From: Candidatus Rokuibacteriota bacterium
Lineage (GTDB): Bacteria; Methylomirabilota; Methylomirabilia; Rokubacteriales; CSP1-6
NCBI GenBank assembly: GCA_003221695.1
Contig: QHSX01000064.1
Span: forward strand, 9,048 to 73,047
Direction of reading: 5' to 3'
DNA: 64,000 nt
This document shows, piece after piece, positions 22,424 to 63,223 of this stretch. The notes beneath the pieces are model-generated. The model was not told where the DNA came from. It made no database searches and saw only the letters and a program-made list of their open reading frames with translations. Position numbers and translations under genes: made by a program. How positions within the stretch are numbered: the first letter of the stretch is position 1; every line of letters starts with the position of its first letter.

Positions 22424-22565
22424 GTCACCGGCCTCCCAGACCCTCCGACGTCGCACCACGCGGCCCCGGCGACCCCGTCCCGTCCATTCCCGGAATCATC
22501 AGGAGAGGCCCCAGGAGTATAAGGATAGGGGCGCGGGAGGTCGACGTCCACTCGGGCGCGTCGGG

Positions 22566-47537: not shown

Positions 47538-47656
47538 CTCCGTGGTCTCGGCTCTGTGAGGGGGGGGTGGTCCGGAAATTATCTGGGTGTCCAGAAACTT
47601 ACCAGCAATATCGTGGCCACCCACTCGTAAGATCTTGAAATTTCAGCATAGGGAGT

Positions 47657-47672
47657 TCGGTATCGAAATTGC
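47657..47672 (+). promoter_or_regulatory. Sigma54-type promoter candidate
   Basis: TCGGTATCGAAATTGC (GG-N10-GC) in an AT-rich intergenic stretch. Confidence 0.45.
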
Positions 47673-47701
47673 CTTTGCTCCATCCCCAGGAGGATTCAGC
47701 C

Positions 47702-47953
47702 ATGGGGATGGGAGAAGTAACAGCGTTCAGCGGGATGGTGCCGGGCAACGGCCAGGCGCACACCCGGGTGCGTGGCGTGGGCCGGCCGTCCACGGTGGCC
47801 CAGTTCTCGCCGCAGATCACGCAGTGGCTTCAGGACCACCCGGCCATGTCGGGTGCGGAGGTGCTTCGGCGCGTCCGTCTGGTAGGCTATCGCGGCGGTA
47901 AGAGCGCGCTGTACGAGCTGGTGCGGCGCCTCCGGCTCGCAATCGCCAACTAG
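47702..47953 (+). CDS. Small protein resembling the IS21 IstA HTH domain
   Basis: GRPS..EVLRRVRLVGYRGGKSALYELVRRLR; GGAGG RBS; no DDE domain follows. Confidence 0.55.
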   Translation: MGMGEVTAFSGMVPGNGQAHTRVRGVGRPSTVAQFSPQITQWLQDHPAMSGAEVLRRVRLVGYRGGKSALYELVRRLRLAIAN

Positions 47954-48074
47954 CCCGCCTTAGCGTGCTCCCGCGTCGGCGCGCCGGCCTTCGGTGTGCG
48001 CTCGACGCGTAGGGACCCGGTCTCGCCTCTCGCGCCACGCTCGGATTCCCGCGCCACGCTCGATCTGGTCGACG

Positions 48075-49751
48075 TCAGCGATCCCGATCGTCCCCGTCGC
48101 CGTCGTGTTCGGCAGCGCCACGGCACGCGAAGTTCGCGGCCTCATTGGTCCCGCCGTGCCCCCTGTAGACCGCCTTTTGAGGGTACGGGCAGAGCGGACG
48201 TTGCATGGCGACGCCCTTCCCGGGATCGTCGTCCACGTATTTCGTGGCGATGATCTTGTCCGGCGCCACGTGGCGGTCGACCCACTGGTCGAGCGCGCTC
48301 AGCACGTCGTGCGCCGCGTCGATTTGTGGCGGGCTCGCCCCGAACACGCCACCGATGGCGTGAGGGCCAGGGCCGCCACCGCAATGGAGCATCCCCGGCG
48401 CCATGAAGAGGCGGAAGAACTGCTGCGTCTCGCGCAGGGCGTCTCCGCGATCGCGAGTGTCGGGCTTGCGCCCATCCTCCTCGGCGACGGCTCGCACCAC
48501 GCTCTCGTAGTAGTTGATGGCGTTGAGCGGCGCGATCGCCCCGTCCTCCCAACCGTGATACATGATGATCTTTCCGCCGCGAGCCTTCAGGCGTCTGAGG
48601 TCCGGGTTGGTCGAGTTGAGGATGCCGGCCAGCTTGTTATCGGTGACGTCGACGTCGCTGTCGAAGTCGAAGGTCCTGAAGTCCCAGCTCGGATCCTCGA
48701 AGACCATGTTGGTGAAAAACTGGTTCCCGAAAAAGAACTGCAGCGCCCCGCCTGGCGGTGCGCCGGTGATCCAGACCGACCAGTTGCCCGGCGCGGCGAC
48801 GGCGCCCGGCGTATAGCCGGGGAAGATCTGCTTTCCTGTGCCCGGGTTCCGTGGCCCGTCCATGATCTTCATGAGCGCGGTCACCTGTGGCGCCGTGAGG
48901 CACGTGTTGGCGTCGGCCCCCTGACACAGGAGTTGCGATGGATCGAAGTGGCATCGCCTCGGGTCGTCGATGATGCCGTCCACGATGCCGTCGAGCGCGT
49001 CACAGGCGGCGAGCGCCGCGGCCTGGATGGCGGGGAGCTTGCTCGTCGGGATGTAGCTGCCTGGTCCACCCATCGTCGCTTGCTCGTTCCAAACGAACCC
49101 CACGAAGTGGTGCGTCCAGAAGTTGGCCGGTGCCCCGACGATGATGCCATCGTAGTCGTCGGGGAAGCGCTGCGCTTCCATGAGCGCCTCCCGGCCGCCG
49201 TCCGAGCATCCGCTGAAGTAGGAACGCCGGGGACCGTTGCCGTAGAAGGCGCGGATGATCGCCTTGGCCCTCTCGGCCGTTTCGTGGACCGCGCGATACC
49301 CGAAATCGACGACCCTTTCAGGGTGTCCCAGGGCCCAGCGGGCGTCGCCGCCCGTGTGGCCATCATCCGTCCCGGCGGTAGCGTAGCCGCGGCGGAGCCC
49401 GGGGGCCAGGGCGCTGTACAAGATCGAGCCCGCGAAGCCGCCATTGCCAATGCCCTCGAACTTTCCGTTCCAGCCCGAGCTTGGCATCCAGACTTCGAAA
49501 CCGATCCGCGAGGCGCTCGTCGGCGTTGCGAAGCCCGCCACCCGGCAGAAGGCCGGCAGATCGTTGACGACCTCCCCACTCGGTGCGCTGAAGGTGCCGG
49601 AGGGGACGGACTGGGCCACCGTGATCGTCGTGTTCGGCACCGCAAGAGCGCTGAGGCTCTCGCAGGCCGCCGCGGCCGCCGGCGTCGGGCCCGGGATGAC
49701 CGCCGCGAGCAGACCCACGACGAGAACGAGAACGCCGAAGTGACGACTCAT
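48075..49751 (-). CDS. Tannase/feruloyl esterase family hydrolase, secreted
   Basis: WNGKF..GNGG, GCSDGGRE, PGMLHCGGG, RPLCPYP. Confidence 0.9.
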   Translation of the reverse strand: MSRHFGVLVLVVGLLAAVIPGPTPAAAAACESLSALAVPNTTITVAQSVPSGTFSAPSGEVVNDLPAFCRVAGFATPTSASRIGFEVWMPSSGWNGKFEGIGNGGFAGSILYSALAPGLRRGYATAGTDDGHTGGDARWALGHPERVVDFGYRAVHETAERAKAIIRAFYGNGPRRSYFSGCSDGGREALMEAQRFPDDYDGIIVGAPANFWTHHFVGFVWNEQATMGGPGSYIPTSKLPAIQAAALAACDALDGIVDGIIDDPRRCHFDPSQLLCQGADANTCLTAPQVTALMKIMDGPRNPGTGKQIFPGYTPGAVAAPGNWSVWITGAPPGGALQFFFGNQFFTNMVFEDPSWDFRTFDFDSDVDVTDNKLAGILNSTNPDLRRLKARGGKIIMYHGWEDGAIAPLNAINYYESVVRAVAEEDGRKPDTRDRGDALRETQQFFRLFMAPGMLHCGGGPGPHAIGGVFGASPPQIDAAHDVLSALDQWVDRHVAPDKIIATKYVDDDPGKGVAMQRPLCPYPQKAVYRGHGGTNEAANFACRGAAEHDGDGDDRDR

Positions 49752-50027
49752 AGGATCCCCTCCCTGTGCAACAGATAGGGGGCCAGGGCTCTCTCCGCTA
49801 TCAGGGGTTTCCTTGGCTCGGCTCAGGGAAGATCCCCCGTCTCGGGAAGCGCGGGAACCTGCGGGAAGTTGCGGCCGGCGCTGATTTCCCTGAGGTCGCG
49901 TGTAACCCCGCTTCGCGATTCACGAGTCGCTCGCCGTCATTCGAGAACAAGCTTCTCAAGTTCGGTCAGGTCACGGATGCCCGATCCGCATCTGCACTAA
50001 CCGCACGCGGATACAGCTGGGCGCGGC

Positions 50028-50057
50028 TTGTTCGCTTCGCCAGCCGCGCGCTATAGT
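50028..50057 (+). promoter_or_regulatory. Sigma70-like promoter facing the cassette array
   Basis: TTGTTC 50028-50033, 18 nt, TATAGT 50052-50057. Confidence 0.45.
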
Positions 50058-50105
50058 CGGGCCGGCGCCGTGCGGAGCCCGGTGGACCGGATGTTCACGT
50101 CGTGA
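50058..50105 (+). pseudogene. intI: Putative remnant of an integron integrase C-terminus
   Basis: Encodes (R)AGAVRSPVDRMFTS-stop, like the IntI terminal VRSPLD motif; positioned just ahead of the array; very short. Confidence 0.55.
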
Positions 50106-50271
50106 CCTGGCTCGCGGCCTCTGGACGTATACGCGACAGGATATGCTGCAGGGGTCCCGCAGCCTATCTCGGGAAAGGGCCTGTCGGGGTGACGAGCAAT
50201 TCGTTCGTATCACGAATAGGCTGCGAAATCCCCCAGCGTTTCCGGTATTACGCTGATCAGCCGATCCGGTG

Positions 50272-50289
50272 GCCGAATTCTAGTTCGGC
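50272..50289 (+). other. attI-like site
   Basis: GCCGAA-TTCTA-GTTCGGC inverted pair; GTTCGGCGT matches 8/9 the complement of the first cassette's R'' region (ACGCCTAAC). Confidence 0.5.
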
Positions 50290-50329
50290 GTACTTCGATA
50301 TGACGCTGCGTGACGACGATTCAAGGATC

Positions 50330-50938
50330 ATGGATCCCAAAACGCAAGTCCGAGAGTCGTACAACCGCATTGCGGGCGCGTATCTTTCGTCACGTCGTTG
50401 CGATTCGCCGGATGTTGCGTTGCTGAATGATCTTGTCGTCCGGCTCCCACCGCGTGCACGGGTCCTTGACGCGGGTTGCGGCGCCGGTGTCCCCATCGCC
50501 CGGCAGCTTGCGACTCGTGCCAATGTCGTCGGGGTCGACTTTGCCGACGTACAGCTCGGCCTCGCCAGACGCCACGTGCCCACGGGGCTTTGGGTCTGTG
50601 CAGACCTCGTCGCACTGCCGTTCGCTGACGCGTCGTTCGATGCGATATGCTCGTATTACGCCGTCATCCACATCCCGCGAGAAGAGCATGCGCGCGTTCT
50701 TGATGGCTTTGCACGAGTGCTACGGTCCGGAGGGCCGGCGCTTCTGTGCCTTGGCGCGGCCGACCTGCCTGCGTGGACGGAGGAGTACCACGACGCGCCA
50801 ATGTATTGGAGCCACTACGATGCCGCGACGAGTCTTTCGCTGGTGAAGGCCGCCGGCTTCGACTTGGTGTGGCATCGTTGGGTCGCCGATGGATCTGGTG
50901 GTCACTTGTTCGTTCTGGCTCAGCGCCATGACGCCTAA
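50330..50938 (+). CDS. Cassette: class I SAM-dependent methyltransferase
   Basis: VLDAGCGAG; TAA stop lies within R''. Confidence 0.85.
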   Translation: MDPKTQVRESYNRIAGAYLSSRRCDSPDVALLNDLVVRLPPRARVLDAGCGAGVPIARQLATRANVVGVDFADVQLGLARRHVPTGLWVCADLVALPFADASFDAICSYYAVIHIPREEHARVLDGFARVLRSGGPALLCLGAADLPAWTEEYHDAPMYWSHYDAATSLSLVKAAGFDLVWHRWVADGSGGHLFVLAQRHDA

Positions 50939-50993
50939 CTGCAGCTTGGAGCCGGCGGCGCTGGCGCGCCGCGGCTCAAGCTGAGCGTTCGGC
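50933..50993 (+). other. attC site 1
   Basis: GCCTAAC..CTTG[G]AGC..GCTCAAG..GTTCGGC. Confidence 0.9.
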
Positions 50994-51021
50994 GTACTAG
51001 CGGCAAGACGGAGGAGGCCAT

Positions 51022-51912
51022 ATGGCAGGTCGACGACCGGTGGTTATCCTGGCGCTGACGTTACTGGTTTTGCCGGAACTCGTGCTTCACGCCTCGGGCA
51101 AGCCCATCACGACGATGGCCCATGGCCCCAAGGGCGACGTCGAGTTCGAGACGCTCACGCTGAACGCGAGCGACTTCTGGGACGGCGTCAAGACCGGGCA
51201 GCGCGTCACCATCTCCGGCGAGCTGCTCCTGCCGAAGGGCGAGGGCCGGGTGCCCGTCGTCGTCCTGTCGCATGGCGGCGGCGGCGTGGGGCGCGCGGAG
51301 GACACCTGGGCTCGTGAGCTGCGATCACAGGGCATAGCCGTGTTTGTCGTCGACAGCTTCACCGGCCGCGGGATCAAGAAGTTCCCGCCCGAGACAGAGC
51401 TGAGTCGCGCCGGGCAGGTGTACGACGTGTACCAGGCCCTCGCGCTCCTCGCGACTCATCCCAGGGTCGACCCCGGCCGTATCGCGCTGATGGGCGGGTC
51501 GCGCGGCGGCGGGCTGTCCCTCCTGGCCGCGATGACGAGATCGCTAAAGGCGCAGGCGCCCGCCAACCTCGAGTTCTGCGCGTATCTCGCGCTTTACCCC
51601 TCGATCAACGCCACGCTCGACTACGGGAAGGTAGCGAGCCGCCCGATCCGCCTCTTCACGGGCACGCTCGACGAGGCCACCTCGATCACCACGGTGCGGG
51701 GCTTCGCCGAGAAGCAGCGGGCGGGCGGCGCCGACGTCAAGCTGTTCGAATACGAAGGCGCCCACCACGCGTTCGACAACCCCGACTTCCGGGCGCCGTT
51801 GGTCGCGACGATAGGGAATACCTCGTTCACCGTGCTCTACCACGCGCAGGCTCACGCGAGGGTCACGAAGGACGTGAAGGCGACGCTGGCCGAGGTCTTC
51901 GCGAAGCCGTGA
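51022..51912 (+). CDS. Cassette: dienelactone hydrolase family protein
   Basis: GGSRGG, YEGAHHAFD; GGAGG RBS. Confidence 0.82.
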   Translation: MAGRRPVVILALTLLVLPELVLHASGKPITTMAHGPKGDVEFETLTLNASDFWDGVKTGQRVTISGELLLPKGEGRVPVVVLSHGGGGVGRAEDTWARELRSQGIAVFVVDSFTGRGIKKFPPETELSRAGQVYDVYQALALLATHPRVDPGRIALMGGSRGGGLSLLAAMTRSLKAQAPANLEFCAYLALYPSINATLDYGKVASRPIRLFTGTLDEATSITTVRGFAEKQRAGGADVKLFEYEGAHHAFDNPDFRAPLVATIGNTSFTVLYHAQAHARVTKDVKATLAEVFAKP

Positions 51913-52057
51913 TGCCGACGGCGGGACGGAGCCAGCAAGGGACGACTGCCGGCATGATTTCCCGGGCGCTCACGATCGAGAATCGCTTGCGGGGAGTTTG
52001 CGGGGGCCAGAAGCTCTCGCTGGAGGAGATGAAACGTGCCGTGCTGCCGAGACGGAC

Positions 52058-52121
52058 GCCGAACAAACGCATGCAGCCGACGGCGCGCAGGGCGCGCCGC
52101 GGCTGATACGTCGCGTTAGGC
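52058..52121 (+). other. attC site 2
   Basis: GCCGAAC..AT[G]CAGCCG[A]CGGCGCGC/GCGCGCCGCGGCTGAT..GTTAGGC. Confidence 0.9.
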
Positions 52122-52138
52122 AGGAAGGTCACAGCACG

Positions 52139-52603
52139 ATGGCGACTGAATGTCCACAATGTGGCCTGATCAATCCGCCCGCTGCCCAGCGTTGCGATTG
52201 CGGCTACAATCTCGCCCAACGCCCCACTCTCAATGCGTCGCGAATCGGCCTTCAGGCTTTGTTGTTCTCTTTTACCGGTCGAATAGGCCGGTCTACATAT
52301 TGGCTCAAGTTTCTCGTGCCGTATTTTGCACTCTACTTGGTATTGCTGGTCGTCGACTGGACTCTGGGAACACTTGATCGCAAGGAAGCTATTGGTCTCC
52401 TTTCTGGGATCTTCCTACTCCTGGCGTTGTTCCCGTCTGTTGCTGTCGGCGTGAAGAGGTGCCACGACAGGGACCGGTCCGGATGGTTCCTCCTGGTGGG
52501 AGTCATCCCCTTTTTGAATCTGTGGCTTCTGATCGAGCTCGGGTTCATGGCCGGGACAGCCGGGCCTAATAGGTACGGGCTCCCTGAGCCACGCGTGGTC
52601 TGA
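52139..52603 (+). CDS. Cassette: DUF805 membrane protein with N-terminal Cys ribbon
   Basis: CPQC..CDCG; FTGRIGR, KRCHDRDRSGW, GPNRYG. Confidence 0.82.
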   Translation: MATECPQCGLINPPAAQRCDCGYNLAQRPTLNASRIGLQALLFSFTGRIGRSTYWLKFLVPYFALYLVLLVVDWTLGTLDRKEAIGLLSGIFLLLALFPSVAVGVKRCHDRDRSGWFLLVGVIPFLNLWLLIELGFMAGTAGPNRYGLPEPRVV

Positions 52604-52647
52604 GCGTCAGCAGGGAGCTATGGTACCCAACCGTCTGCGCTGTCCCT

Positions 52648-52705
52648 GCTTAACCTCGGCATTCAGCCGACGGCCTGTGGCCGCGGCTGATGCCGGGCGT
52701 TGAGC
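52648..52705 (+). other. attC site 3 (R' now GTT plus the IS left end)
   Basis: GCTTAAC..CAGCCG..CGGCTG..GTT|GAGC. Confidence 0.88.
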
Positions 52706-54473
52706 CTGTAGAAAAACCTTGGAATCGCCGTCGTCTCGTCTCTCGTGTGAAGAGCGCGACGACCTCACACGATGAGGAGGAGCGATGGCGCGGTTTAAGC
52801 CCTACAGCTACGATCAGCTGAAGCTCGTGCCGGTGAGCTTCGAGCGCCAGATCCTGCCGGGCACGTTCGAGGCTACGCTGAGCCGCCTGATCGACGAGGA
52901 GATCGATCTGTCGGTGTTCGAAGCCCGGTACCGTAACGACGAGGTGGGGGCGCCGGCCTACGACCCGGCCATCCTTCTCAAAGTCATCCTTTATGCCTAC
53001 GCCCGCGGCGTGACCTCCAGCCGCGAGATTGCCCGGCTGTGTCGGGAGAATGTCCTGTTCATGGCGTTGTCGGCCGACAGCGCGCCCCACTTCACGACGA
53101 TCGCAGATTTCATTGCGACGCTCGACCGGGAGATCGTCGCCGTGTTCCGGGACGTGCTCTTGGTGTGTGACGAGCTGGGGCTGATCGGGCGAGAGATGTT
53201 CGCCGTCGATGGGGTGAAGCTGCCGAGCAATGCCTCCAAGGAGTGGAGCGGCACCCGGGGGGACTTCGAGAAGAAGATCGCGAAGATGGAACGTGCGGTT
53301 GAGCATCTGGTGCGCCGTCACCGCGACGCCGACGCGGCGGGGGACGAGGAACCGCTGCGGGTGGCGCGGGGCAAGCAGATCGAGACCCTCCAGGCGGCGC
53401 TGGAGAAGGTCCGGGGGTTTCTTCAACGCCACGCGGACAAGGTCGGGCCCAGCGGGCGGGTGAAGAAGAGCAACCTCACCGACAACGACAGTGCCAAGAT
53501 GAAGACCTCGAAGGGCGTGATCCAGGGCTACGACGGGGTGGCGGTCGTGGACGGCCAGCATCAAATCGTGGTCCACGCGCAGGCCTTCGGCGAAGCCCAG
53601 GAGCACGCGCTGCTGGTGCCCATGTTGGAGGGGACGCGAGCGACGTTTCGCGAGCTGGGCCTCGCCGAGGACGTGCTGGCGGGCGCGGTGGTCGCGGCGG
53701 ACGCGGGCTTCCACACGGACGCGAACGTGCAGTACCTCGACGAGACGCACGTCGACGGCTATCTGGCCGACACGTTGTTTCGCAAGCGCGACCCGCGCTT
53801 TGTCACCGCCGAGCGGCATAAGCCCGAGCCGGTGGACGATCCCGCGCGGCTCTTTCGGCCCGAGGACTTTCGCTTCGACCCGAAGAGCTTGACCTGCATC
53901 TGCCCGGCGGGCAAGCGGCTGTACCGGAGCGGCCAACACAACCGTCCTGACGGCTATCGCGCGGTGATCTTCAAAGGGGCCAAGCGGGACTGCGGGGCGT
54001 GCCCGCTGCGCGCCCGGTGCCTGACGCATCCCGAGCGCACTCTGATCCGACAGGTCACGCTCTTCCTGGGACGATCCCCGGGCAAGCCGGAGACCTGCAG
54101 CGCTCGCATGAAGCGCAAGATCGACACCGACCACGGGCGCTATCAGTACAGTCGCCGGCTTGCGGTGGCCGAGCCGGTGTTTGCGAACATCTGCAGCAGC
54201 CGCCGCTTGAGGCGGTTCAGCCTGCGCGGCCACCGAAAGATCAACACCCAGTGGCTGCTGTACTGCCTGGTGCACAACATCGGGAAGCTGCAACGCTACG
54301 GGACGAGCGAGGGCCGATCGGCATGAACGGATCGATCCGCCAGAGCGAGAACGGCCGCAGGCGATGCTGAGAGATCGGCTGTCGGCACCCCTCGCCTCCC
54401 TCGATAAAGACCGCCGACACTAGGGCGATTCTGGCGATGGCAGGCTTCGCAAACCTGGTTTTTCTACAGACTC
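52702..54473 (+). mobile_element. IS1182-family insertion sequence (1772 bp) in an attC core
   Basis: 17-bp IRs GAGCCTGTAGAAAAACC / GGTTTTTCTACAGACTC (16/17); GTT duplicated at 52699-52701 and 54474-54476. Confidence 0.92.
52785..54326 (+). CDS. IS1182-family DDE transposase
   Basis: GAPAYDP..LLKV..SSR (DUF772-like), AVDGVKL, ADAGF, CPAG..C..CP..C, AEPVFAN. Confidence 0.9.
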   Translation: MARFKPYSYDQLKLVPVSFERQILPGTFEATLSRLIDEEIDLSVFEARYRNDEVGAPAYDPAILLKVILYAYARGVTSSREIARLCRENVLFMALSADSAPHFTTIADFIATLDREIVAVFRDVLLVCDELGLIGREMFAVDGVKLPSNASKEWSGTRGDFEKKIAKMERAVEHLVRRHRDADAAGDEEPLRVARGKQIETLQAALEKVRGFLQRHADKVGPSGRVKKSNLTDNDSAKMKTSKGVIQGYDGVAVVDGQHQIVVHAQAFGEAQEHALLVPMLEGTRATFRELGLAEDVLAGAVVAADAGFHTDANVQYLDETHVDGYLADTLFRKRDPRFVTAERHKPEPVDDPARLFRPEDFRFDPKSLTCICPAGKRLYRSGQHNRPDGYRAVIFKGAKRDCGACPLRARCLTHPERTLIRQVTLFLGRSPGKPETCSARMKRKIDTDHGRYQYSRRLAVAEPVFANICSSRRLRRFSLRGHRKINTQWLLYCLVHNIGKLQRYGTSEGRSA

Positions 54474-54503
54474 GTTAGAAGGACAAGAGTCGAGGAGGTA
54501 CCC

Positions 54504-54944
54504 ATGGGCCGACCGTACGCGACAGAAAACGATGCTGAGCGCACCAGACTGAAGGCCTTCGTAGCCGGGCTGAGGGATGCCACGATCGCTCGCTCCATCG
54601 GCCATGGGTGGACGGTCGGCGTTGGTCTGGCACACTTGGCCTTCTGGGACAGGCTCTGGCTCGCCAAGTTCGAGGAGTGGGAGCGCACGGGTGTGGTGAG
54701 GGTGCCGCCAGTCGAGAGCTTCGTCAACGGAATCAACGACGGCATGCTGCCCTGGTGGCAGGCTATTGCGCCAGCCCAGATCAGGTACGAGGTGATCGCG
54801 GCGGCCGAGGCGGCGGACAGCAAGGCTGAGAGCCTGCGCGAGGCATTGGCCCAGGCAATCCTCGCGGTGCGTCCGCGGACTCTTGTTCGTGCGACCCATC
54901 GCCGTCAGCATCTGGACGAAATCGAGCGCGCCCTTGCCGACTGA
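54504..54944 (+). CDS. Cassette: DinB/MDMPI-like protein
   Basis: GWTV..LAHLAFWD, HRRQHLDEI. Confidence 0.7.
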   Translation: MGRPYATENDAERTRLKAFVAGLRDATIARSIGHGWTVGVGLAHLAFWDRLWLAKFEEWERTGVVRVPPVESFVNGINDGMLPWWQAIAPAQIRYEVIAAAEAADSKAESLREALAQAILAVRPRTLVRATHRRQHLDEIERALAD

Positions 54945-54971
54945 CGACAGGTACGCACCCAACCCAGGGCC

Positions 54972-55040
54972 TTCTAACCGCACGCTTCAGCTGACCGGGG
55001 CTCGCGCTGCTCGCCCCCGCAGCTGAGCGGCACGTTAGCC
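54972..55040 (+). other. attC site 4
   Basis: TTCTAAC..TCAGCTG..CAGCTGA..GTTAGCC. Confidence 0.9.
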
Positions 55041-55059
55041 GTCCAGAGGGAGACGGGGA

Positions 55060-55425
55060 ATGGATCGACGGCCAATCAACTTTGCCGAGAAGTTCTCGAA
55101 GTTCTCTGACCACTGGGCGCCGAAGATCATCGCCCAAATGAACGACTATCACTTCAAACTCGTGAAGATTCAGGGCGAGTTTGTCTGGCACAGTCACGCT
55201 GACACCGACGAAGTCTTCATCGTCATCGGTGGGGAGATGAAGATCCACCTCCGGGATGGCGAGGTTAACCTCCGACCCGGAGAACTGTTCGTTATCCCGC
55301 GAGGAGTCGAGCACAAGCCCTGGGCGGCTGGAGAGTGCAAAATCATGCTTGTTGAGAGTGCTGGAACAATCAACACGGGTGATGCCGGTGGCCCAAAGAC
55401 AGCCGCTGACGGAGTCTGGGTCTAA
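55060..55425 (+). CDS. Cassette: cupin domain protein
   Basis: [19 protein letters not shown]. Confidence 0.85.
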
Positions 55426-55431
55426 ATGGCC

Positions 55432-55489
55432 CCCTAACACCGCTGGCTCGCCTTTGCTCGGCGGCGCCGCGCAACGTGCGCGGTGAGGG
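55432..55489 (+). other. attC site 5 (degenerate)
   Basis: CCCTAAC...GTGAGGG; poor internal pairing; GTT changed to GTG. Confidence 0.5.
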
Positions 55490-55508
55490 GGTATAGGACA
55501 TTCTCCAG

Positions 55509-56097
55509 ATGGATGATCTTGAAATCAGGCAGGTTCCGGCAGTGGTCGATACGATTCGCCGCGACACCCGGCAGTTGGGGTTCACAATGGCTTCTGAGCC
55601 GCAGACCGGCTCGCTGCTTCGCACCCTCGCCGCATCCAAGCCGAGCGGCAGATTTCTGGAACTCGGGACCGGTACTGGCGTCGGTACGGCTTGGCTCCTC
55701 GCCGGCATGGACGAGCGTTCCCGGCTCGACTCGGTCGAAAACGACGCCAAGGTGTTGGAGGTGGCTCGGCGCCATCTCGGGCACGACCCGCGCGTCACGT
55801 TCCATCTCGCAGACGGTGAGGCGTTCCTCGCCCAGTCAGCACCGTTGCACTTCGACTTCATCTACGCTGACACGTGGCCCGGCAAGTTCACGCACGTGGA
55901 CCTTGCGCTTTCGCTCCCGAAAGTCGGCGGTATCTATTTTATCGACGACCTTACTACCGCAGGCGTCATGGCCGGAGGGGCACGCACCAAAGGTTCCGGC
56001 GCTGATCACGGAGCTGGAAACCCGACCCGGATTTGTTGCCACGAAGTTGGCCTGGGCGTCCGGGCTTATGATGCTCGTACGAACGAATGCCGTCTAA
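55509..56097 (+). pseudogene. Cassette: O-methyltransferase with a +1 frameshift near 55950
   Basis: LELGTGTG frame to IDDL, then LPQASWPEGH.. continues in another frame whose TAA is inside R''. Confidence 0.75.
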
Positions 56098-56160
56098 CAC
56101 GGACTTGACCCCGACGCCGCGGGTGACCCGATCGCGCCGCGGGTCAGTCCGATGTTAGAC
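56092..56160 (+). other. attC site 6
   Basis: GTCTAAC..GGACT[T]GACCC..GGGTCAGTCC..GTTAGAC. Confidence 0.85.
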
Positions 56161-56190
56161 CGACAACAGCCGAAACCAACAGAGAGAGTC

Positions 56191-57048
56191 ATGCATGATA
56201 AGCAAGTGGCGGCGCCAGACAACACGGCGGTGCGGGTCGCCTTGTGGCGGGCGCTGCACGTAGAAGTCGATTCGCCGCCGCACGTGCTCGAAGACGAAGT
56301 CGGCTTGAAGCTGGCGGCTCCAGACGACGGATGGCGCAGCCGCCCGGACATGAGCCCGTTCACGCGGCCCTTCCGCGCCTCCATCGTGGCCCGCGCCCGC
56401 TTCATTGAAGATCTCGTCGCGGAACAAGTTGCCCATGGCGTCGGACAGTACGTCATCCTCGGAGCGGGGCTGGACACCTTCGCCCAGCGTCGGCCGGAGC
56501 TTGCCTCCCGTCTGCTCGTGTTCGAGATCGATCCGCCCGGCCCTCAGGCGTGGAAGCGCCAGCGCCTCGTCGACCTCGGCCTCGGTATCCCGTCGTTCCT
56601 GCGGCTCGTGCCAGTCGACTTCGAGGCAGGCGACGCGTGGCGGGAGCAGCTGGCAGCGACGGGCTTCGACTCCGGGCGGCCGGCGGTCGTGGCGTCCACC
56701 GGTGTCAGCATGTACCTGACCAAGAACGCGATTGCGGCGACGCTGCGCCAGGTCGCGACGCTCTCTCCGGGCTCCACGCTCGCCATGTCGTTCATGCTTC
56801 CGATCGAGCTTGCGGACCCCGAGGTGCGTCCCGGGATTGAGCGAGCGGTGGCGGGGGCGCGAGCAAACGGCACGCCCTTCATCAGCTTCTTCACGCCGAC
56901 AGAGATGCTGACACTGGCTCGCAATGCCGGCTTTAGAGAGGTCCAGCACGTATCGGCAGCTACGCTTGCCCAACGCTACTTCGCGGGCAGGACAGATGGC
57001 CTTCGTCCGCCAAATAATTCAGAGGAACTGCTAGTGGCGACTACCTAA
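56191..57048 (+). CDS. Cassette: LCM-family SAM-dependent methyltransferase
   Basis: RARFIED, QYVILGAGLDT, GVSMYL. Confidence 0.85.
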   Translation: MHDKQVAAPDNTAVRVALWRALHVEVDSPPHVLEDEVGLKLAAPDDGWRSRPDMSPFTRPFRASIVARARFIEDLVAEQVAHGVGQYVILGAGLDTFAQRRPELASRLLVFEIDPPGPQAWKRQRLVDLGLGIPSFLRLVPVDFEAGDAWREQLAATGFDSGRPAVVASTGVSMYLTKNAIAATLRQVATLSPGSTLAMSFMLPIELADPEVRPGIERAVAGARANGTPFISFFTPTEMLTLARNAGFREVQHVSAATLAQRYFAGRTDGLRPPNNSEELLVATT

Positions 57049-57057
57049 AATGAAGCG

Positions 57058-57117
57058 GTCTAACAACCGGTTGTGGCGGACGGCGCTGCGCACCGCCGCT
57101 GAGCCGGAGTGTGAGAT
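57058..57117 (+). other. attC site 7 (R' GTG variant)
   Basis: GTCTAAC..GCGG[A]CGG..CCGCCGC..GTGAGAT. Confidence 0.78.
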
Positions 57118-57135
57118 GTACAAGCGACGAGAGCT

Positions 57136-57579
57136 ATGACGTCGGCAGGCACCACGAGGATCTGTGCTGGCGGCCTGCTGGTTCGGGGAGGCCAGATCCT
57201 TTTGGCTAGGCGCTCGGGAGACCGGAAGTTTTACCCCGGTGTGTGGGACATCATCGGTGGACACTGCGAAGGAGGCGAAGCACCTGCCGATGCCCTCGTT
57301 CGCGAACTTGAGGAAGAGATTGGCGTCAAGGCGCACGTGTTCGAGGAGATCGCCGTCTTGGAGGAGCCGCAGCCTGCCGAACACGGAGACGCCAGGTATC
57401 ACGTGTTCGTCGTGACATCCTGGGGCGGAGGTGAGCCCCGGTTGCTTGGGGCCGAGCATTCTGAGCTGCGCTGGGTGAACCTTGCTCACGCATTGGCTCT
57501 ACCACTTGCTCATCCTGGGTATGGCAACCTCTTCCGCGCCGTATTGGGACGTGGCGGTGCATTCGAACGAGACATCTAA
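57136..57579 (+). CDS. Cassette: NUDIX hydrolase
   Basis: GGHCEGGE..ALVRELEEEIG; stop in R''. Confidence 0.88.
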   Translation: MTSAGTTRICAGGLLVRGGQILLARRSGDRKFYPGVWDIIGGHCEGGEAPADALVRELEEEIGVKAHVFEEIAVLEEPQPAEHGDARYHVFVVTSWGGGEPRLLGAEHSELRWVNLAHALALPLAHPGYGNLFRAVLGRGGAFERDI

Positions 57580-57645
57580 CCCGGCACTCGAGCGGACCGC
57601 TGGCTCGCATTCGCTCGCCGCGGCCGCTCACTGCCAGCGTTCGAC
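57574..57645 (+). other. attC site 8
   Basis: ATCTAAC..GAGCGG[A]CCGC..GCGGCCGCTC..GTTCGAC. Confidence 0.9.
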
Positions 57646-57691
57646 GGCACCGAATAGGGGCCGAGGATTGTGCATTTGATAATGTAACCGG

Positions 57692-57889
57692 GTGAAGGTT
57701 CGTGAAGTGATTCGGATGCTGCAAGACGATGGCTGGACGCTGGTGGTTACAAGAGGTAGCCATCGTCAGTTCAAGCACCCGACCAAGCCGGGCCGTGTGA
57801 CTGTCAGCGGCCAGCTTGGAGACGACATGCCGAAGGGGACGCTGGCATCCGTCAGGCGCCAGGCGGGGCTTAAAGGAGACAGACCGTGA
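57692..57889 (+). CDS. hicA: Cassette: HicA toxin
   Basis: DGW..RGSHRQFKHP..GRVTV..GTL. Confidence 0.9.
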   Translation: MKVREVIRMLQDDGWTLVVTRGSHRQFKHPTKPGRVTVSGQLGDDMPKGTLASVRRQAGLKGDRP

Positions 57890-58149
57890 AAAGGCTGCGG
57901 TACCTCGTGCGCATCAACAAGGACCCTGACAGCGATTGGGGCGCTTCCGTTCCTGATTTGCCAGGATGCGTCGCTACGGGCAAGACGATCGACTCAACCC
58001 TCCAGCGCATTCAGGCGGCGATTCAACTTCATCTCCGTGGAATGCGGGCTGACGGTGTTCGTCCTCCGCGCCCACGCCGGCGAACTGTAGTGCCGGGCAG
58101 GACATCGCGACAGGTCGACTTTTACGCAACCGTAGAGGTTGCCGCCTGA
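57886..58149 (+). CDS. hicB: Cassette: HicB antitoxin (short form)
   Basis: VPDLPGCVATGKT; overlaps hicA stop. Confidence 0.88.
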   Translation: MKRLRYLVRINKDPDSDWGASVPDLPGCVATGKTIDSTLQRIQAAIQLHLRGMRADGVRPPRPRRRTVVPGRTSRQVDFYATVEVAA

Positions 58150-58177
58150 GAAGGGTGGACACGGTTGCCGGCAGTCC

Positions 58178-58241
58178 GCCGAACAAGCGCATGCAGCCGC
58201 CGGCGCGCAGGGCGCGCCGCGGCTGATAGGTAGCGTTCGGC
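58178..58241 (+). other. attC site 9
   Basis: 59/64 identical to attC site 2. Confidence 0.92.
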
Positions 58242-58259
58242 GAACGTCAGAGGTGCAGT

Positions 58260-58832
58260 ATGGAAATCGTCATGACACGAACCGCGGAGGGGCGGTCCAC
58301 GACGCTCGTGCGACGCGACGATGGCGTTACGCTTGAGCTTCCGAGTTACGCACCCCTTCACAGACTCCCTCACGACTTGGCGCACTTCGTCGTCGAGCGC
58401 ACTCTAGGGCTCCTGTGGGGGTTCTGGGGCTCCATCGCCGCTGGTGCCGTATTCGCAGGCGTGGAGGTTCTTCCGCGAAAGCGGGCCGCGCGCGTAGAGG
58501 AGCTTTCGCGACAGGTCATGAAGGGCGTCAGTTCGCGGGTCACCGAGGCCGAGGCAGTCGTAGGCAGCCTGGTAGAGATCTACCAGCGTCGGCTTGATCG
58601 CGACTGGGCAGCGGCTCGCGCTCTGCTCAGTGGGATATGGAGGCCGGCTCACCCATCGCGCGAGCTCCCCACACAGCCAGAGGTGCGTCGCGTATGTCAG
58701 GAGCTTTCGGATGCTGAGAACCGCTGGCTCGGCATGGCCATTGGTAGTAGCGTCACGCTTGTCTGGCCTCGGCAGGAGGCCACTTCTCCTCGTGCAGCGT
58801 CGCCGAACATCAGCCTTCAACCGATGCGCTAA
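58260..58832 (+). CDS. Cassette: hypothetical protein (PHDLAHFVVE motif)
   Basis: 190-aa ORF bounded by attC sites; reads into its own attC. Confidence 0.7.
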   Translation: MEIVMTRTAEGRSTTLVRRDDGVTLELPSYAPLHRLPHDLAHFVVERTLGLLWGFWGSIAAGAVFAGVEVLPRKRAARVEELSRQVMKGVSSRVTEAEAVVGSLVEIYQRRLDRDWAAARALLSGIWRPAHPSRELPTQPEVRRVCQELSDAENRWLGMAIGSSVTLVWPRQEATSPRAASPNISLQPMR

Positions 58833-58860
58833 CGCGCGCGGCTGATGCTGAGCGTTGAGC
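58802..58860 (+). other. attC site 10
   Basis: GCCGAAC..TCAACCG..CGGCTGA..GTTGAGC. Confidence 0.8.
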
Positions 58861-58864
58861 CGCC

Positions 58865-59647
58865 GTGAGAGAATCCAGAACGCCGGGCTGCCTCAGCGCC
58901 CGCCAGATCCTTTGGTTCGTCTCGCCGACGGTCGTATTGGTGTTCGCGGGCGCCTCCACGCCGTGGATAGCCCAGCGGGTTCCTCGATTTACCTTTCCGA
59001 CCGTGGCCGCCGCTGGTGCCGCGCTGATCGTGTTGTCGTTCGTGAACTCGCTCGTTCAGTTCGTGCGGCGTCGCCGCGTGGAAGGGCACCTGCGCTTCTT
59101 CTCTGTCGTCGTCAATGTCGTTGCGCTGGTGTTTCTCGTGCTTCTGCCCCTGACGCATCTTGTGTGTGCGGTGACCCCCTCAGGCGACGGCACCCCGCGA
59201 ATCCACACGGGCTTTGGCGACTGGCTGGGCTCAGAGGGCTATCCGCGGATGAGTCCCCATCGCGGCGTCGACGTCGCAGGCAGGATGGGCGCGGATGTGC
59301 TGGCGGCGGCCGACGGCCGCGTCACCGTCGCGCGTGACAACCGAGACTTGTGCGGGCTGATCGTCGTTATCGACCATGATCCATACGGCCTCCGAACGGT
59401 CTATTGCCACTTCTCCGAGATCGCCGTACGGGTCGGGGAGAATGTCAAGCGTGGCCAACGGATCGGCGCGGTCGGCACGTCGGGGCAGCGCGCGTGGCCT
59501 GGCTTTGAGCATGTGCACCTGGAGCTGCAGAGAGGGCGTAACATCAACGCCATCGAAGACCCGCTCCCACGGATTGTAGGATGCTTCGATGACACGAAGG
59601 TGTACTCGGCAGATCGCTTGGTGCTCACATATCCGGTGAAGTGCTGA
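58865..59647 (+). CDS. Cassette: membrane-anchored M23 peptidase
   Basis: Three TM segments, HRGVD, YCH, HVHLE. Confidence 0.82.
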   Translation: MRESRTPGCLSARQILWFVSPTVVLVFAGASTPWIAQRVPRFTFPTVAAAGAALIVLSFVNSLVQFVRRRRVEGHLRFFSVVVNVVALVFLVLLPLTHLVCAVTPSGDGTPRIHTGFGDWLGSEGYPRMSPHRGVDVAGRMGADVLAAADGRVTVARDNRDLCGLIVVIDHDPYGLRTVYCHFSEIAVRVGENVKRGQRIGAVGTSGQRAWPGFEHVHLELQRGRNINAIEDPLPRIVGCFDDTKVYSADRLVLTYPVKC

Positions 59648-59693
59648 GGATCTGCCAGGAAACATGGAGACAAAGTCATGCTGACAGCGGGTC

Positions 59694-59749
59694 GGCTAAC
59701 TTGCACATACACCCGATGCTTCGCGCGCCGCTCAGCGTGATCGTTAGGT
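59694..59749 (+). other. attC site 11 (degenerate arms)
   Basis: GGCTAAC...CCGCTCA..GTTAGGT. Confidence 0.6.
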
Positions 59750-59798
59750 CCAAAGCTCAGCCCGACTGGCTCCACGATTGTCATAAAGGAGGGAGGTC

Positions 59799-60710
59799 AC
59801 GCTGAAGCGGGTCGAGGCGGGTGTCCTCAGCGTCGCCTATGAAGAGAGTGGTGCCGCGAGCGGCACACCAGTTTTGCTTCTGCACGGTTTCCCCTATGAC
59901 GTTCACGCCTACGATGAGGTCACGCCTCTTCTTGTTTCGGCGGGGTGTCACGTTATTGCACCCTTCCTGCGCGGGTACGGGCCCACGCGCTTCTTGTCTC
60001 TCGATACGCCGCGCTCGGGACAGCAGGCGGTGCTGGCCCACGATCTCGTGGCCTTCATGGATGCGCTCCAAATTCAGAGGGGTGTGCTGGCGGGCTACGA
60101 CTGGGGAGGTCGTGCTGCTTGTATCGTCGCTGCGCTGTGGCCTGAGCGGGTAAGGGGGCTGGTATCAGGGGGCGGTTACAACATTCAGTACATTCCCGGC
60201 TATATCGAGCCACAAGCGCCGGAGAGAGAGTTTCAACTGTGGTACCAGTACTACTTCCATGGCGAGCGTGGGCGGGCCGGTCTGGAACAGAATCGCTACG
60301 AGTTTTGCAAACTTCTGTGGCGGCTTTGGTCCCCGAACTGGCATTTCGATGAGGCGACCTATGAACGCACTGCTGGTTCTTTCAACAACCCGGACTTCGT
60401 CGCTGTGGTGATTCATTCCTATCGGCATCGCTTTTCGCTGGTGCCCGGAGACCCGGCGACCGAGGTTACCGAACGCCGGTTGACCCAGCGACCGCCGATT
60501 GCCGTGCCGACGATCGTGCTGCACGGAGGTGATAACGGAGTCACGCCGGTAGCTAGCTCCGAGCGCCACCATCGGTTCTTCACAGCCGCATATGAGCGCC
60601 GAGTGATTCCGCTGGCGGGCCACAACTTGCCCCAGGAAGCGCCCCAGGACTTTTCGGCGGCGGTGCTCTCCCTCGTTAACCGTGCCAAAGAAGAACTCCG
60701 ATCGGCCTAA
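59799..60710 (+). CDS. Cassette: alpha/beta hydrolase (epoxide hydrolase-like), non-canonical start
   Basis: LLHGFP, GYDWGG, GHNLPQE; strong RBS precedes ACG/CTG. Confidence 0.82.
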   Translation, partial: TLKRVEAGVLSVAYEESGAASGTPVLLLHGFPYDVHAYDEVTPLLVSAGCHVIAPFLRGYGPTRFLSLDTPRSGQQAVLAHDLVAFMDALQIQRGVLAGYDWGGRAACIVAALWPERVRGLVSGGGYNIQYIPGYIEPQAPEREFQLWYQYYFHGERGRAGLEQNRYEFCKLLWRLWSPNWHFDEATYERTAGSFNNPDFVAVVIHSYRHRFSLVPGDPATEVTERRLTQRPPIAVPTIVLHGGDNGVTPVASSERHHRFFTAAYERRVIPLAGHNLPQEAPQDFSAAVLSLVNRAKEELRSA

Positions 60711-60786
60711 CATCACGTTGGACCCGACGGCCCACCTCCCTCGCCGGGGCTCGCTCGGTGGCCGCAGGTCAACGTGAGCGTTAGGC
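60705..60786 (+). other. attC site 12
   Basis: GCCTAAC..CACGTTG[G]ACC..GGTCAACGTG..GTTAGGC. Confidence 0.9.
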
Positions 60787-60791
60787 CGACC

Positions 60792-61307
60792 ATGACGATA
60801 CTGATGGGTTTTCTGCTGTTACTACAGCAAGCGTCGACTCTTCAAAGCACGTGCCCTGATCTGTCTGGCCGCTACGTCAAACAAAGTGAGGACGGGCGAG
60901 TCTACATCTCTATCAAGCAAACTCGCTGCGAGTCGATCGAGATCGATTGGGACGGGGAGACTCACGTCCTGCGACTCGATGGCAAGTCTCATGAAGACAC
61001 CAGCTGGTTTGGCGGCACCGGGAAGCAGCTTACCTCGGCAACATTTCGCTCTAAGATCCTCGAGCTCATCGCAAGACCTGAGAAGGCCGCAGACGCATCC
61101 GCCTTCCTTTGGAAGCTCGCCTTTGAGCTACTCTCTAATGGAGATCTTTGCGAACGGTTCCTCAGTTCCCATGGGTCTTCGTCGTCCGTGGCCGGACGCC
61201 AGAGGTCGAGCGACCCGTCAGCAGAAGACGAAGCCGCTCGACGTTCATCGGAAGCACGAGATCCGTCGGACCCTTATCAGGCCCTCGGTTGTCCACGGAG
61301 AAAGTAG
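60792..61307 (+). CDS. Cassette: hypothetical exported protein
   Basis: Signal-like N-terminus, CPDLSGRY. Confidence 0.6.
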   Translation: MTILMGFLLLLQQASTLQSTCPDLSGRYVKQSEDGRVYISIKQTRCESIEIDWDGETHVLRLDGKSHEDTSWFGGTGKQLTSATFRSKILELIARPEKAADASAFLWKLAFELLSNGDLCERFLSSHGSSSSVAGRQRSSDPSAEDEAARRSSEARDPSDPYQALGCPRRK

Positions 61308-61338
61308 TGCCGTCACGGATAGAGGCGTAGGTGATGAA

Positions 61339-61821
61339 ATGGTGACGTGGAAGGAGTTCGCCGCTGCCGAGCGCGACCTGGCCGAAACGGGCCGCTCGCT
61401 TCTCCTTCATAAGTCTGGCGTAGGGCTGGCCTTTCTGGCGACCGTGCGCAAGGACGGTGCCCCGCGCCTCCACCCGCTGTGCCCCGTCCTTTCCGACGAC
61501 CGTCTCTTTGTCCTCATTACACCCGCTTCACCGAAGCGCCACGACTTGCTGCGGGATGGCAGGTACGCTCTTCAGACGTTCTCGCAGCCGAAGCCTGGAA
61601 GCGACGAGTTCTACGTCGCAGGCAAAGCCATCTTGGTTGAAAATCCGGCGGTCCGTGGCGCAGTGTTTCGAGACGCGAAACACATGGCAAACGCGTCTGA
61701 AGTTCTGTTTGAACTGTGGATCGATCGGGTCATGCATACGCGATGGGAGAACGTACTAACGCCACAGATGCGCCCAGTGCACAGGAAGTGGCGCGCGCCG
61801 GGAGCCGCGAGTTCCGCCTAA
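61339..61821 (+). CDS. Cassette: pyridoxamine 5'-phosphate oxidase-like protein
   Basis: LATVRKDGAPRLHP, KRHDLLRDGRYAL; stop in R''. Confidence 0.82.
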   Translation: MVTWKEFAAAERDLAETGRSLLLHKSGVGLAFLATVRKDGAPRLHPLCPVLSDDRLFVLITPASPKRHDLLRDGRYALQTFSQPKPGSDEFYVAGKAILVENPAVRGAVFRDAKHMANASEVLFELWIDRVMHTRWENVLTPQMRPVHRKWRAPGAASSA

Positions 61822-61902
61822 CCGGCGCATGGAGCCGCCCGGCATGATCCCGGCTGCTTCTCTCAAGCCTCTCTGCGCCGGCGGCTCATGCGCACGTTCG
61901 AC
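61816..61902 (+). other. attC site 13
   Basis: GCCTAAC..GCGCATG[G]AGCCG..CGGCTCATGCGC..GTTCGAC. Confidence 0.9.
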
Positions 61903-62538: not shown

Positions 62539-62745
62539 TCTCCCTCCCGACCGAGAGAAACTCCGGCACGTGAGACAAAGTGCGGTTGCTCTCTCCACTA
62601 ATCTAATGAGAGGACCTGGCGGAGCGAAGAATTCCGGCTGACAGCGAGCATCGCCTGTTAGGACGTATCCAGAAATAGGCCTGGGCTCCGGCGCGTCCAT
62701 GCGCGATGATTGAAGTGAAGGTGACTCTGCGTAAGGAGGGACGAC

Positions 62746-63176: not shown

Positions 63177-63223
63177 GACTTCGAATCCGAAGGTCGCAGG
63201 TTCGATCCCTGCCGGGCGCACCA
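63177..63223 (+). pseudogene. 3' half of tRNA-Arg(UCG), att-site core
   Basis: CTTCGAA anticodon loop, GCAGG-TTCGATC-CCTGC T arm, CGGGCGC-ACCA; 5' acceptor strand and D arm absent. Confidence 0.85.

Follow-up and report, generated by a model that had tools for sequence, protein, structure and literature searches.

The stretch of DNA investigated in this study, hereafter termed the window, comprises 64 kb from the genome of a Candidatus Rokuibacteriota bacterium (G000:C21:9048-73047, where G000 denotes the source genome and C-numbers its contigs). The genome is a metagenome-assembled genome (MAG) consisting of 109 contigs, with the contig that harbors the window extending over 131 kb. From about position 50000 onward, the G+C content of the window, which is close to 70%, drops to 61-65%, and the credible genes located between 50283 and 61902 are all encoded on the plus strand, with each gene or gene pair being followed by an imperfect palindrome. 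These palindromes constitute 13 attC-like sites of 56-87 bp in a single orientation (50933-61902), and we assign the entire element with high confidence to a chromosomal integron of co-oriented, Treponema-like layout, in which deletion has spared no more than the final 48 bases of the integrase gene intI (Table 1). The chromosomal nature of the array is reflected in its location on C21, where it adjoins cimA. The closest named relatives of this flanking gene are found in Candidatus Methylomirabilota MAGs (86, 80 and 76% identity, besides a 79% match labelled 'uncultured bacterium'), in line with the poorly studied lineage that a preliminary description of the sequence had proposed.

Table 1. 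Features of the integron locus and its surroundings (window coordinates; R1 and R2 are the covariance models described in the text; ORF, open reading frame; IS, insertion sequence; SAM, S-adenosylmethionine; TIR, terminal inverted repeat)
Feature	Coordinates	Strand	Description
Tannase/feruloyl esterase gene	48075-49751	-	PF07519, 436 bits; first gene of the segment without same-genus counterpart
delta-intI relic	50059-50106	+	intI 3' end, reads ..RAGAVRSPVDRMFTS*; stop 50103-50105
attI-like region	50107-50289	+	first junction GTT 50283-50285; inverted pair GCCGAA..TTCGGC at about 50271-50289
Cassette 0	50283-50993	+	SAM methyltransferase, ORF 50300-50938, PF13649 69 bits; attC1
attC1	50933-50993	+	R1 71.0 bits, R2 65.2 bits
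Cassette 1	50987-52121	+	dienelactone-hydrolase-like, ORF 51022-51912, PF01738; start/R'' 9/9; attC2
attC2	52058-52121	+	R2 61.5 bits
Cassette 2	52115-52701	+	DUF805 membrane protein, ORF 52139-52603, PF05656; attC3
attC3	52648-52705	+	R2 60.0 bits; R' split by IS
IS1182-family IS, 1772 bp	52702-54473	+	transposase gene 52785-54326; TIRs GAGYCTGTAGAAAAACC; GTT on both sides
Cassette 3	54474-55040	+	DinB/MDMPI-like, ORF 54504-54944, weak PF11716/PF12867 below cut-off; attC4
attC4	54972-55040	+	R2 34.2 bits
Cassette 4	55034-55489	+	cupin, ORF 55060-55425, PF07883; attC5
attC5	55432-55489	+	degenerate, core GTG; R1 41 bits (model trained on attC5), no R2 match
Cassette 5	55483-56160	+	class I methyltransferase, probably frameshifted; attC6
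attC6	56092-56160	+	R2 40.7 bits
Cassette 6	56154-57117	+	LCM-type O-methyltransferase, ORF 56152-57048, PF04072 162 bits; attC7
attC7	57058-57117	+	core GTG; R2 27.4 bits
Cassette 7	57111-57645	+	NUDIX hydrolase, ORF 57136-57579, PF00293; attC8
attC8	57574-57645	+	R2 50.2 bits
Cassette 8	57639-58241	+	HicA toxin 57692-57889 (PF07927), HicB antitoxin 57886-58149 (PF15919); attC9
attC9	58178-58241	+	R2 54.5 bits
Cassette 9	58235-58860	+	190-residue protein without Pfam family, ORF 58260-58832; attC10
attC10	58802-58860	+	R2 42.7 bits
Cassette 10	58854-59749	+	membrane-anchored M23 peptidase, ORF 58865-59647, PF01551; attC11
attC11	59694-59749	+	degenerate; fold only -7.1 kcal/mol, no R2 match
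Cassette 11	59743-60786	+	alpha/beta hydrolase, ORF 59802 or 59874 to 60710, PF00561; attC12
attC12	60705-60786	+	R2 69.3 bits
Cassette 12	60780-61902	+	177-residue protein without family 60774-61307, PNPOx-like 61342-61821; attC13
attC13	61816-61902	+	R2 46.1 bits; final attC
tRNA-Arg(TCG) 3'-end copy, 47 nt	63177-63223	+	left repeat of an integrase island, not part of the integron

The 13 sites have the sequence, the fold and the extrahelical-base geometry of attC sites. Their R'' box ends with AAC in every case and R' begins with GTT in 11, with GTG found at 55483 and 57111, which refines the earlier account of palindromes of 56-87 bp that are bounded by AAC and GTT. The excerpted parts of PMC5027507 characterize attC sites by an R'' of the form RYYYAAC, an R' of the form GTTRRRY and an imperfect palindrome of about 57-141 bp, and these boundary motifs and lengths are found in the window. 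Upon folding, the bottom strands reach energies of -7.1 to -26.4 kcal/mol and display bulged bases on the R''-L'' arm, which correspond to the unpaired bases that had been noticed in the left arm of the top strand. With numbering that begins at the bottom strand's 3' end, nine of the 13 minimum free energy folds leave position 23 unpaired and 11 leave a base within positions 23-25 unpaired, with a T at position 23 in eight sites, and a base at positions 15-17 is unpaired in 11 of the folds. The base at position 16 is C or A instead of the usual G, with a single G as exception, and a 6-bp stem between the bulges was confirmed by hand in the fold of attC2 and in the alignment of one site on C28. 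Extrahelical bases at positions 16 and 23/24 that are separated by a 6-bp stem form the attC geometry as excerpted from Nivina et al., 2016 (PMC5027507). Together with the unpaired central spacer, this geometry is found in the window sites, and the bottom-strand folding proposed as a check in the preliminary description thus recovers the canonical form in 11 of 13.

The sites were located by folding, since an ungapped palindrome scan detected only one of them as a consequence of the bulges, which break ungapped matching. RNAalifold applied to a MAFFT alignment produced a poor consensus (-3.2 kcal/mol) and a hand-mapped structure was used instead, in which 77.6% of cells pair, as opposed to 28-38% after a shift of the partners by 1-3 columns, with 13 of 26 pairs changing on both sides and a covariation score that was reached in none of 500 shuffles. 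As this structure was derived from the same 13 sequences, the test leans in its favor. A covariance model of the 13 window sites (R1), searched with filters off, scores its own sites at 40-76 bits and the rest of the 64 kb at no more than 12.6 bits. Its scores on the top strand are lower by 17-47 bits in seven sites, and the other six are without top-strand match (E up to 10), which reflects the asymmetry of the bulges. Since R1 is circular for the sites it was built from, we have constructed a second model (R2) from 23 attC sites of the same genome outside the window, whose independence extends to sequence but not to the choice of sites, as those used for training had been picked by R1. R2 recovers 11 of the 13 sites at identical coordinates and on the same strand with scores of 27.4-69.3 bits, the next best match in the window being at 14.2 bits. 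All 13 proposed sites could thus be located by sequence and fold, whereas only the 11 recovered by R2 are solid. With filters off, a 14th site is detected by neither model at either end of the array (left, about 50240-50290; right, about 62598-62664), nor do they find further attC sites between 61902 and 64000, and the array starts, as had been described, with the first GTT at 50283 that is preceded by no attC in either search. A very GC-rich tandem repeat at 22555-22844 (68-bp unit, 4.3 copies, 94% matches) contains weak hairpin matches of the attC model.

A second line of evidence concerns the start of each cassette, which is complementary to its own R''. Over nine nucleotides, the matches for cassettes 0-12 amount to 8, 9, 8, 9, 6, 6, 9, 8, 8, 9, 4, 7 and 8. 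When the invariant GTT/AAC is disregarded, cognate pairs match at 4.77 of six positions compared to 3.26 in 156 non-cognate pairings, and the observed cognate total is reached at a frequency of 5e-5 in 20000 permutations. The complementarity fails in cassettes 4, 5 and 10, and the nine pairs that had been listed before were reproduced within one base. The stop codons that were described to fall inside R'' are found in five of the 13 sites (ORF end/R'' start 50938/50933, 56097/56092, 57579/57574, 60710/60705 and 61821/61816).

The integrase that would have generated such an array is represented at the locus by its 3' end. This relic was identified by a BLAST search of the 559 nt to the left of the array against the genome, which matched the 3' end of the intI gene on C28. 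The two sequences agree at 43 of 49 aligned positions, with a local score of 66 compared to a maximum of 36 in 200 shuffles, and no similarity to intI was found by local alignment upstream of position 50059. The relic, which is located 307 nt downstream of the tannase gene, is oriented toward the array and the distance between its stop codon and the first GTT amounts to 177 nt, with the equivalent distance on C28 being 178 nt. Orientation and spacing thus argue for an intI-attI platform that once resided at this position and that has lost intI from its 5' side, and the 177-nt spacer would presumably have served as attI. We consider it unlikely that the deletion is an artefact of the assembly, because its junction is covered by contigs from four soil runs, with one contig spanning 47884-51015.

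Consistent with the absence of an intact integrase that was noted previously, there is no match to the integrase family TIGR02249 on C21 near the array, which hence lacks the adjacent intact intI of a complete integron. A search of the whole genome with this family yielded matches above cut-off only at C28:1905-2459 and C11:80501-81154, both of which belong to broken genes. On C28 (region C28:1905-2769), the match is confined to positions 131-315 of the family, with the first 130 missing, and intI abuts the 113 C-terminal residues of another tyrosine recombinase, which terminates at a tRNA-Arg, suggesting that both genes were truncated by one event. On C11 (region C11:80481-83586), positions 1-111 are joined in frame to 195-315, and the deletion of positions 112-194 removes a third of the catalytic domain. 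At the same locus, a tyrosine recombinase and an IS91-family transposase were inserted between intI and the first cassette, before attI. With the 48-nt relic in the window, all three intI loci identified in this genome are thus broken.

The relationship between the described attC family and IntI is apparent from other loci. Sites recognized by the window-trained R1 are located directly 3' of intI on C28 (595-664 and 1196-1253) and on C11 (six sites within 84493-89967), where intI points toward the cassettes and where the first cassettes begin with GTTAGAC and complement their own R'' at 8/8 and 10/10 positions. Further clusters were found on C32, C53, C46, C35, C34 and at the end of C11, resulting in about 37 sites in the genome, 13 of which reside in the window. 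Among the relatives, R1 sites are placed 3' of intI and in the same orientation in five of the five loci listed with both features (G024:C57, G024:C184, G035:C261, G018:C4 and G006:C78). Full-length intI genes, covering positions 1-315 or 1-314 of TIGR02249, are present in G024, G006, G015 and G035. Altogether, attC matches (E up to 1e-4) were obtained in 33 of 41 genomes, which include G000 and G011, and in 32 of the 40 relatives, and IntI above cut-off in 10 of 41 genomes including G000, equivalent to nine of 40 relatives. One cassette sequence is found at the end of both C28 (1-602) and C46 (3676-4277), in opposite orientation and after two different attC sites, which points either to duplication of the cassette or to arrangements that vary within the population.

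From established integron biology, we infer that the array was assembled in the past by IntI. From left to right, the locus would thus consist of the delta-intI gene, the attI-like spacer of 177 nt that extends to the GTT at 50283, where the crossover would be located after the G, and 13 promoterless-looking cassettes. Each cassette would have entered as a circle, with IntI bound to the folded bottom strand of attC, which provides the R box, an unpaired spacer, the L box, in which positions 16 and 23 are extrahelical, as well as a variable loop, and strands would have been exchanged with attI between AA and C of 5'-AAC-3'. The insertion of circles by such an exchange would explain why the first nucleotides of a cassette are complementary to its own R''.

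The proteins encoded by the cassettes were assigned with Pfam and comprise, among others, three SAM methyltransferases, one of which is probably frameshifted, a dienelactone-hydrolase-like protein, an alpha/beta hydrolase, a HicAB pair and two proteins without family. No family typical of antibiotic resistance was found by Pfam among the cassette proteins, with no dedicated resistance database having been run, in agreement, within this scope, with the enzymes and hypothetical proteins without recognizable resistance genes of the initial account. HicAB belongs to a type of toxin-antitoxin module that is thought to stabilize large arrays. In the presumably frameshifted gene of cassette 5, the N-terminal part is encoded in the frame starting at 55509 and the C-terminal part in an overlapping long frame that ends at 56097, with PF13578 covering residues 50-147 only. 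The change of frame appears to be located near 55950 (55509-56108), and the downstream frame stops at a TAA in R'' of attC6. A metagenome contig of the same population contains four differences over 54085-58861, none of them at this frame switch.

The array is interrupted by an insertion sequence of the IS1182 family, which splits attC3 precisely at its GTT core. The transposase matches NF033551 with 271.4 bits (cut-off 270) and the Pfam families DDE_Tnp_1_6/DUF772. We have rejected its assignment to the IS1111-attC group, since the transposase matches this IS1182-family model and not that of the DEDD IS110/IS1111 type. Past the element, the sequence GTTAGAAGG at 54474 complements R'' of attC4 at 9/9 positions. 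Other copies in the genome are located at C11:138142-139505, C46:1-435 and C34:126841-127271, and additional ones were found in metagenome contigs that are 99.5-100% identical to G000 and in L138 and L128/L145 (metagenome loci L111, L116, L123, L126, L138, L143 and L155), with the IS copies of the metagenome contigs being about 92-100% identical to that of the window. Every copy is immediately bordered by GTT beyond its two inverted repeats, and the copies in attC sites share one orientation. On the left side, five of six distinct flanks consist of an attC site with an R1 match that terminates precisely at the end of the IS, the sole counter-example to such targeting being L128/L145, whose left flank ends with CGTT and shows neither an R1 match nor an attC-like fold. 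Of five right junctions, the four other than that of L138 were compared, and each of them is the start of a cassette that agrees with R'' of the attC site following it (9/9, 9/10, 8/10 and 9/10). At the DNA level, the element was not found in the 40 relatives. We consider it an evenly balanced question whether it represents a DDE-transposase IS that targets the crossover point of attC, between G and TT, in a fixed orientation and thus a third independent class of attC parasites; the papers examined among those retrieved for IS1182 together with attC do not describe such an insertion. The junction after attC10 (58854-58862), which reads GTTGAGCC, differs from the GTTAGCC that is predicted from R'' of the respective cassette. 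By virtue of an extra G, the junction resembles the left end of the IS, and the metagenome contig L116, which deviates from the window at four positions over 4.8 kb, carries a copy of the IS exactly at this GTT. The difference would thus represent an insertion that is polymorphic or, alternatively, the footprint of an excision.

Within its genus, the array has a restricted distribution. The DNA match of same-genus genomes that starts from cimA ends at window position 47940-48075, approximately. In G002 and G003, the sequence past cimA continues, after 0.6-1.4 kb, with homologs of C11:92357 onward of G000, no attC match was obtained at the locus, and this block is located directly after the C11 array in G000 (regions compared side by side: window 45589-48075, G002:C141, G003:C154 and C11:92357-109474 of G000). 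A third same-genus contig ends too early to judge the locus. The comparison of cassette content at the tannase locus that was suggested in the preliminary description has thus revealed that the array is absent in G002 and G003 and that the gene order is not identical, and the array is therefore not ancient at this position. Of the genomes examined, those of this lineage alone contain the tannase-integron segment, and the described arrangement suggests that the arrays of the window and of C11 flank an ancestral adjacency, which was altered by a rearrangement or a large insertion involving integrons. No attC was found in the named relatives L012-L016, whose sequence 3' of cimA is too short for an assessment of the locus, and on the side of the C11 integron, the contigs of relatives end 0.1-0.6 kb from DnaE2, with G001 continuing with a homolog of C15:152677 and not with intI.

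To the right of the integron, a mini-island of about 2.8 kb (63177 to C21:75029) is enclosed by a pair of identical 47-nt repeats that correspond to the 3' end of tRNA-Arg(TCG). Besides at least one more long open frame, the island encodes a tyrosine integrase of 361 residues on the minus strand and a toxin-antitoxin pair of the HigB-like/XRE type. The left repeat, at which the low-GC segment ends on its right side, is identical at C21:74983-75029 and within the intact tRNA-Arg at C28:2693-2769. Neither in the window nor in C21:70000-88000 does ARAGORN detect a tRNA, with the intact tRNA-Arg being located on C28 beside the broken intI.

In soil metagenomes, the array is conserved at no less than 0.90 of its sampled words in 20 runs from 14 studies, and the run with the highest share may be the source sample. 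In four runs from four studies whose contigs were compared along the array, the whole stretch is covered and the array, including the IS and the deleted intI, appears unchanged. The left end of the IS is reached by contigs of runs X1 and X6 and its right junction is crossed in X2, X6 and X16. In the same four runs, the contig depth of the IS bins is about 2-3 times that of neighboring bins. Joints such as 52081>52683, 55014>57593, 50786>58833 and others were rejected as excision products, since their sides extend over 20-25 letters and are located inside hairpins; we attribute them to cross-matching of similar attC sites or to other organisms. As contigs drop rare variants and cannot show rare circles, these joints say nothing on excision.

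The constancy of the array in these samples, together with the three broken intI loci, the two GTG cores, the attC site split by the IS and the one probably frameshifted gene, leads us to regard the array as probably frozen, and we infer both its present inactivity and its expression. Several observations weigh against our assignment of the locus as a degenerate integron that has come to rest. Two sites (55432-55489 and 59694-59749) are missed by R2, and both, attC5 and attC11, fail at each of the two extrahelical positions. Beyond the relic, the attI-like region has no sequence similarity to its counterparts on C28 or C11, and its label is thus purely positional. No sigma-70-like promoter was found in 49700-50400, which leaves expression unexplained. 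In the metagenomes, contigs of the same population show alternative neighbors for some cassettes and IS copies, loose ends of unitigs are located exactly at attC borders, including attC8, and the bin of the HicAB cassette (57589-58119) has 2-5 times the depth of its neighbors in four soil runs, all of which could reflect ongoing cassette exchange somewhere in the community. In these communities, other contexts apparently exist for the HicAB cassette. Finally, the MAG with its 109 contigs breaks inside arrays and IS copies, and an intact intI could be contained in the unassembled part.

Several of these points would be compatible with an array that still acts as a reservoir, mobilized in trans by an intact IntI residing in the unassembled part of the genome, in co-resident relatives or on incoming DNA. 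Canonical cores and folds are maintained in 11 of 13 sites, family-level relatives (G024, G006, G015 and G035) contain full-length intI, the same cassette is found after different attC sites in metagenome contigs of 99.5-100% identity, as it is in the sequence shared by C28:1-602 and the end of C46, and mobilization of cassettes in trans has been proposed for clusters of attC sites that have no integron integrase (CALINs) in the excerpted part of Cury et al., 2016 (PMC4889954). We still consider such activity unlikely, given that the three intI loci found are all broken, that the array, including the IS and the loss of intI, appears unchanged in four soil runs from four studies, and that no reliable GTT joint skips a whole cassette, the two attC-to-attC joints listed having sides below 30 letters within hairpins, in contigs that would not reveal rare circles. 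The array might alternatively never have been associated with an integrase of its own, with cassettes inserted at a secondary site or an array split off another integron by rearrangement, both of which are named as routes to CALINs in the same excerpt, and the homology of the block following cimA in G002 and G003 to C11:92357 onward makes a rearrangement involving the arrays plausible. The correctly oriented intI relic at a distance of 177 nt from the first GTT, compared to 178 nt on C28, argues instead for a resident platform and renders this origin improbable. Even less probable, to a degree where we attribute hardly any weight to it, is an assignment of the palindromes to another class of repeats, such as repetitive extragenic palindromic (REP)-like elements, terminators or ends of miniature inverted-repeat transposable elements (MITEs) that trail genes by chance. 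The sites are GC-rich hairpins at gene ends and a scan of the window at Rfam gathering thresholds returned no match, which says nothing either way for attC. Such repeats would account neither for cassette starts that complement their own R'', nor for the score excess of the bottom strand (17-47 bits in seven sites, with the other six lacking a top-strand match), nor for the same family of sites beside intI genes in this and other genomes, and no T-tract terminators were found in 49700-50400, the one stretch scanned.

Collectively, the locus is formally a CALIN and, more exactly, a chromosomal integron that has lost intI, and thus an ordinary representative of an already well described type of element, here in a phylum that has received little study. 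Integrons are thereby documented for Candidatus Methylomirabilota, which is common in soil but uncultured. Among the relatives sampled, attC-like sites are common and, in all cases where both features are seen, IntI has the same orientation as the cassettes. A full-text search, judged by titles and the start of abstracts, returned no paper on integrons of Methylomirabilota or Rokubacteria, and the supplements of surveys might list the phylum. Since a datable relic remains, the locus also offers a clear worked example of a CALIN arising through the loss of intI, and it points to a possibly new family of attC-targeting IS. If this targeting is genuine, the described element, together with three independently broken intI genes, would portray a soil population of Methylomirabilota caught while its integrons fossilize. 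On a practical level, routine annotation of MAGs misses such arrays, and contig breaks in these genomes often reside in arrays.

The properties of the array resemble those of CALINs as excerpted from Cury et al., 2016 (PMC4889954), which contain at least two clustered attC sites without a nearby intI. As in these, there is no intI that could be called by a hidden Markov model, the cassettes are of unknown or non-resistance function and intI loci are present elsewhere in the genome. In contrast to the average CALIN with its five sites, the array contains 13, and it has retained a 48-nt relic of intI and a junction at the position of attI, owing to which its origin by loss of intI is still visible. 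An intI pseudogene within 10 kb was found for 15 of 279 CALINs in the same excerpt, where sedentary chromosomal integrons are delimited by a chromosomal location and their presence in all strains of the species, or by more than 19 attC sites. The array is chromosomal, contains 13 sites, which is below 19, and is near-constant in 20 soil runs, and it is absent in G002 and G003. A similar fate has been described for Xanthomonas (Gillings et al., in the part cited via PMC12444791), where intI was inactivated by frameshifts, stops or large deletions, where arrays remain fixed and where CALINs are located at other loci. The array described here differs in its phylum, in an intI gene that is co-oriented instead of divergent and in a locus that is not common to the same-genus genomes examined. 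The layout found on C28, on C11 and in five of the five listed loci of relatives is that of the 'atypical' integron of Treponema denticola, as excerpted from PMC3607928. This likeness concerns the layout; our locus belongs to Methylomirabilota and not to Spirochaetes and has lost its integrase. With respect to the inserted element, the specific, single-orientation insertion into attC sites is reminiscent of IS1111-attC elements and group IIC-attC introns, which it would join as a third class if attC is indeed its target, whereas its IS1182-family DDE transposase, its TIRs and the flanking GTT distinguish it from both, emphasizing that it is neither a DEDD element of the IS110/IS1111 type nor an intron.

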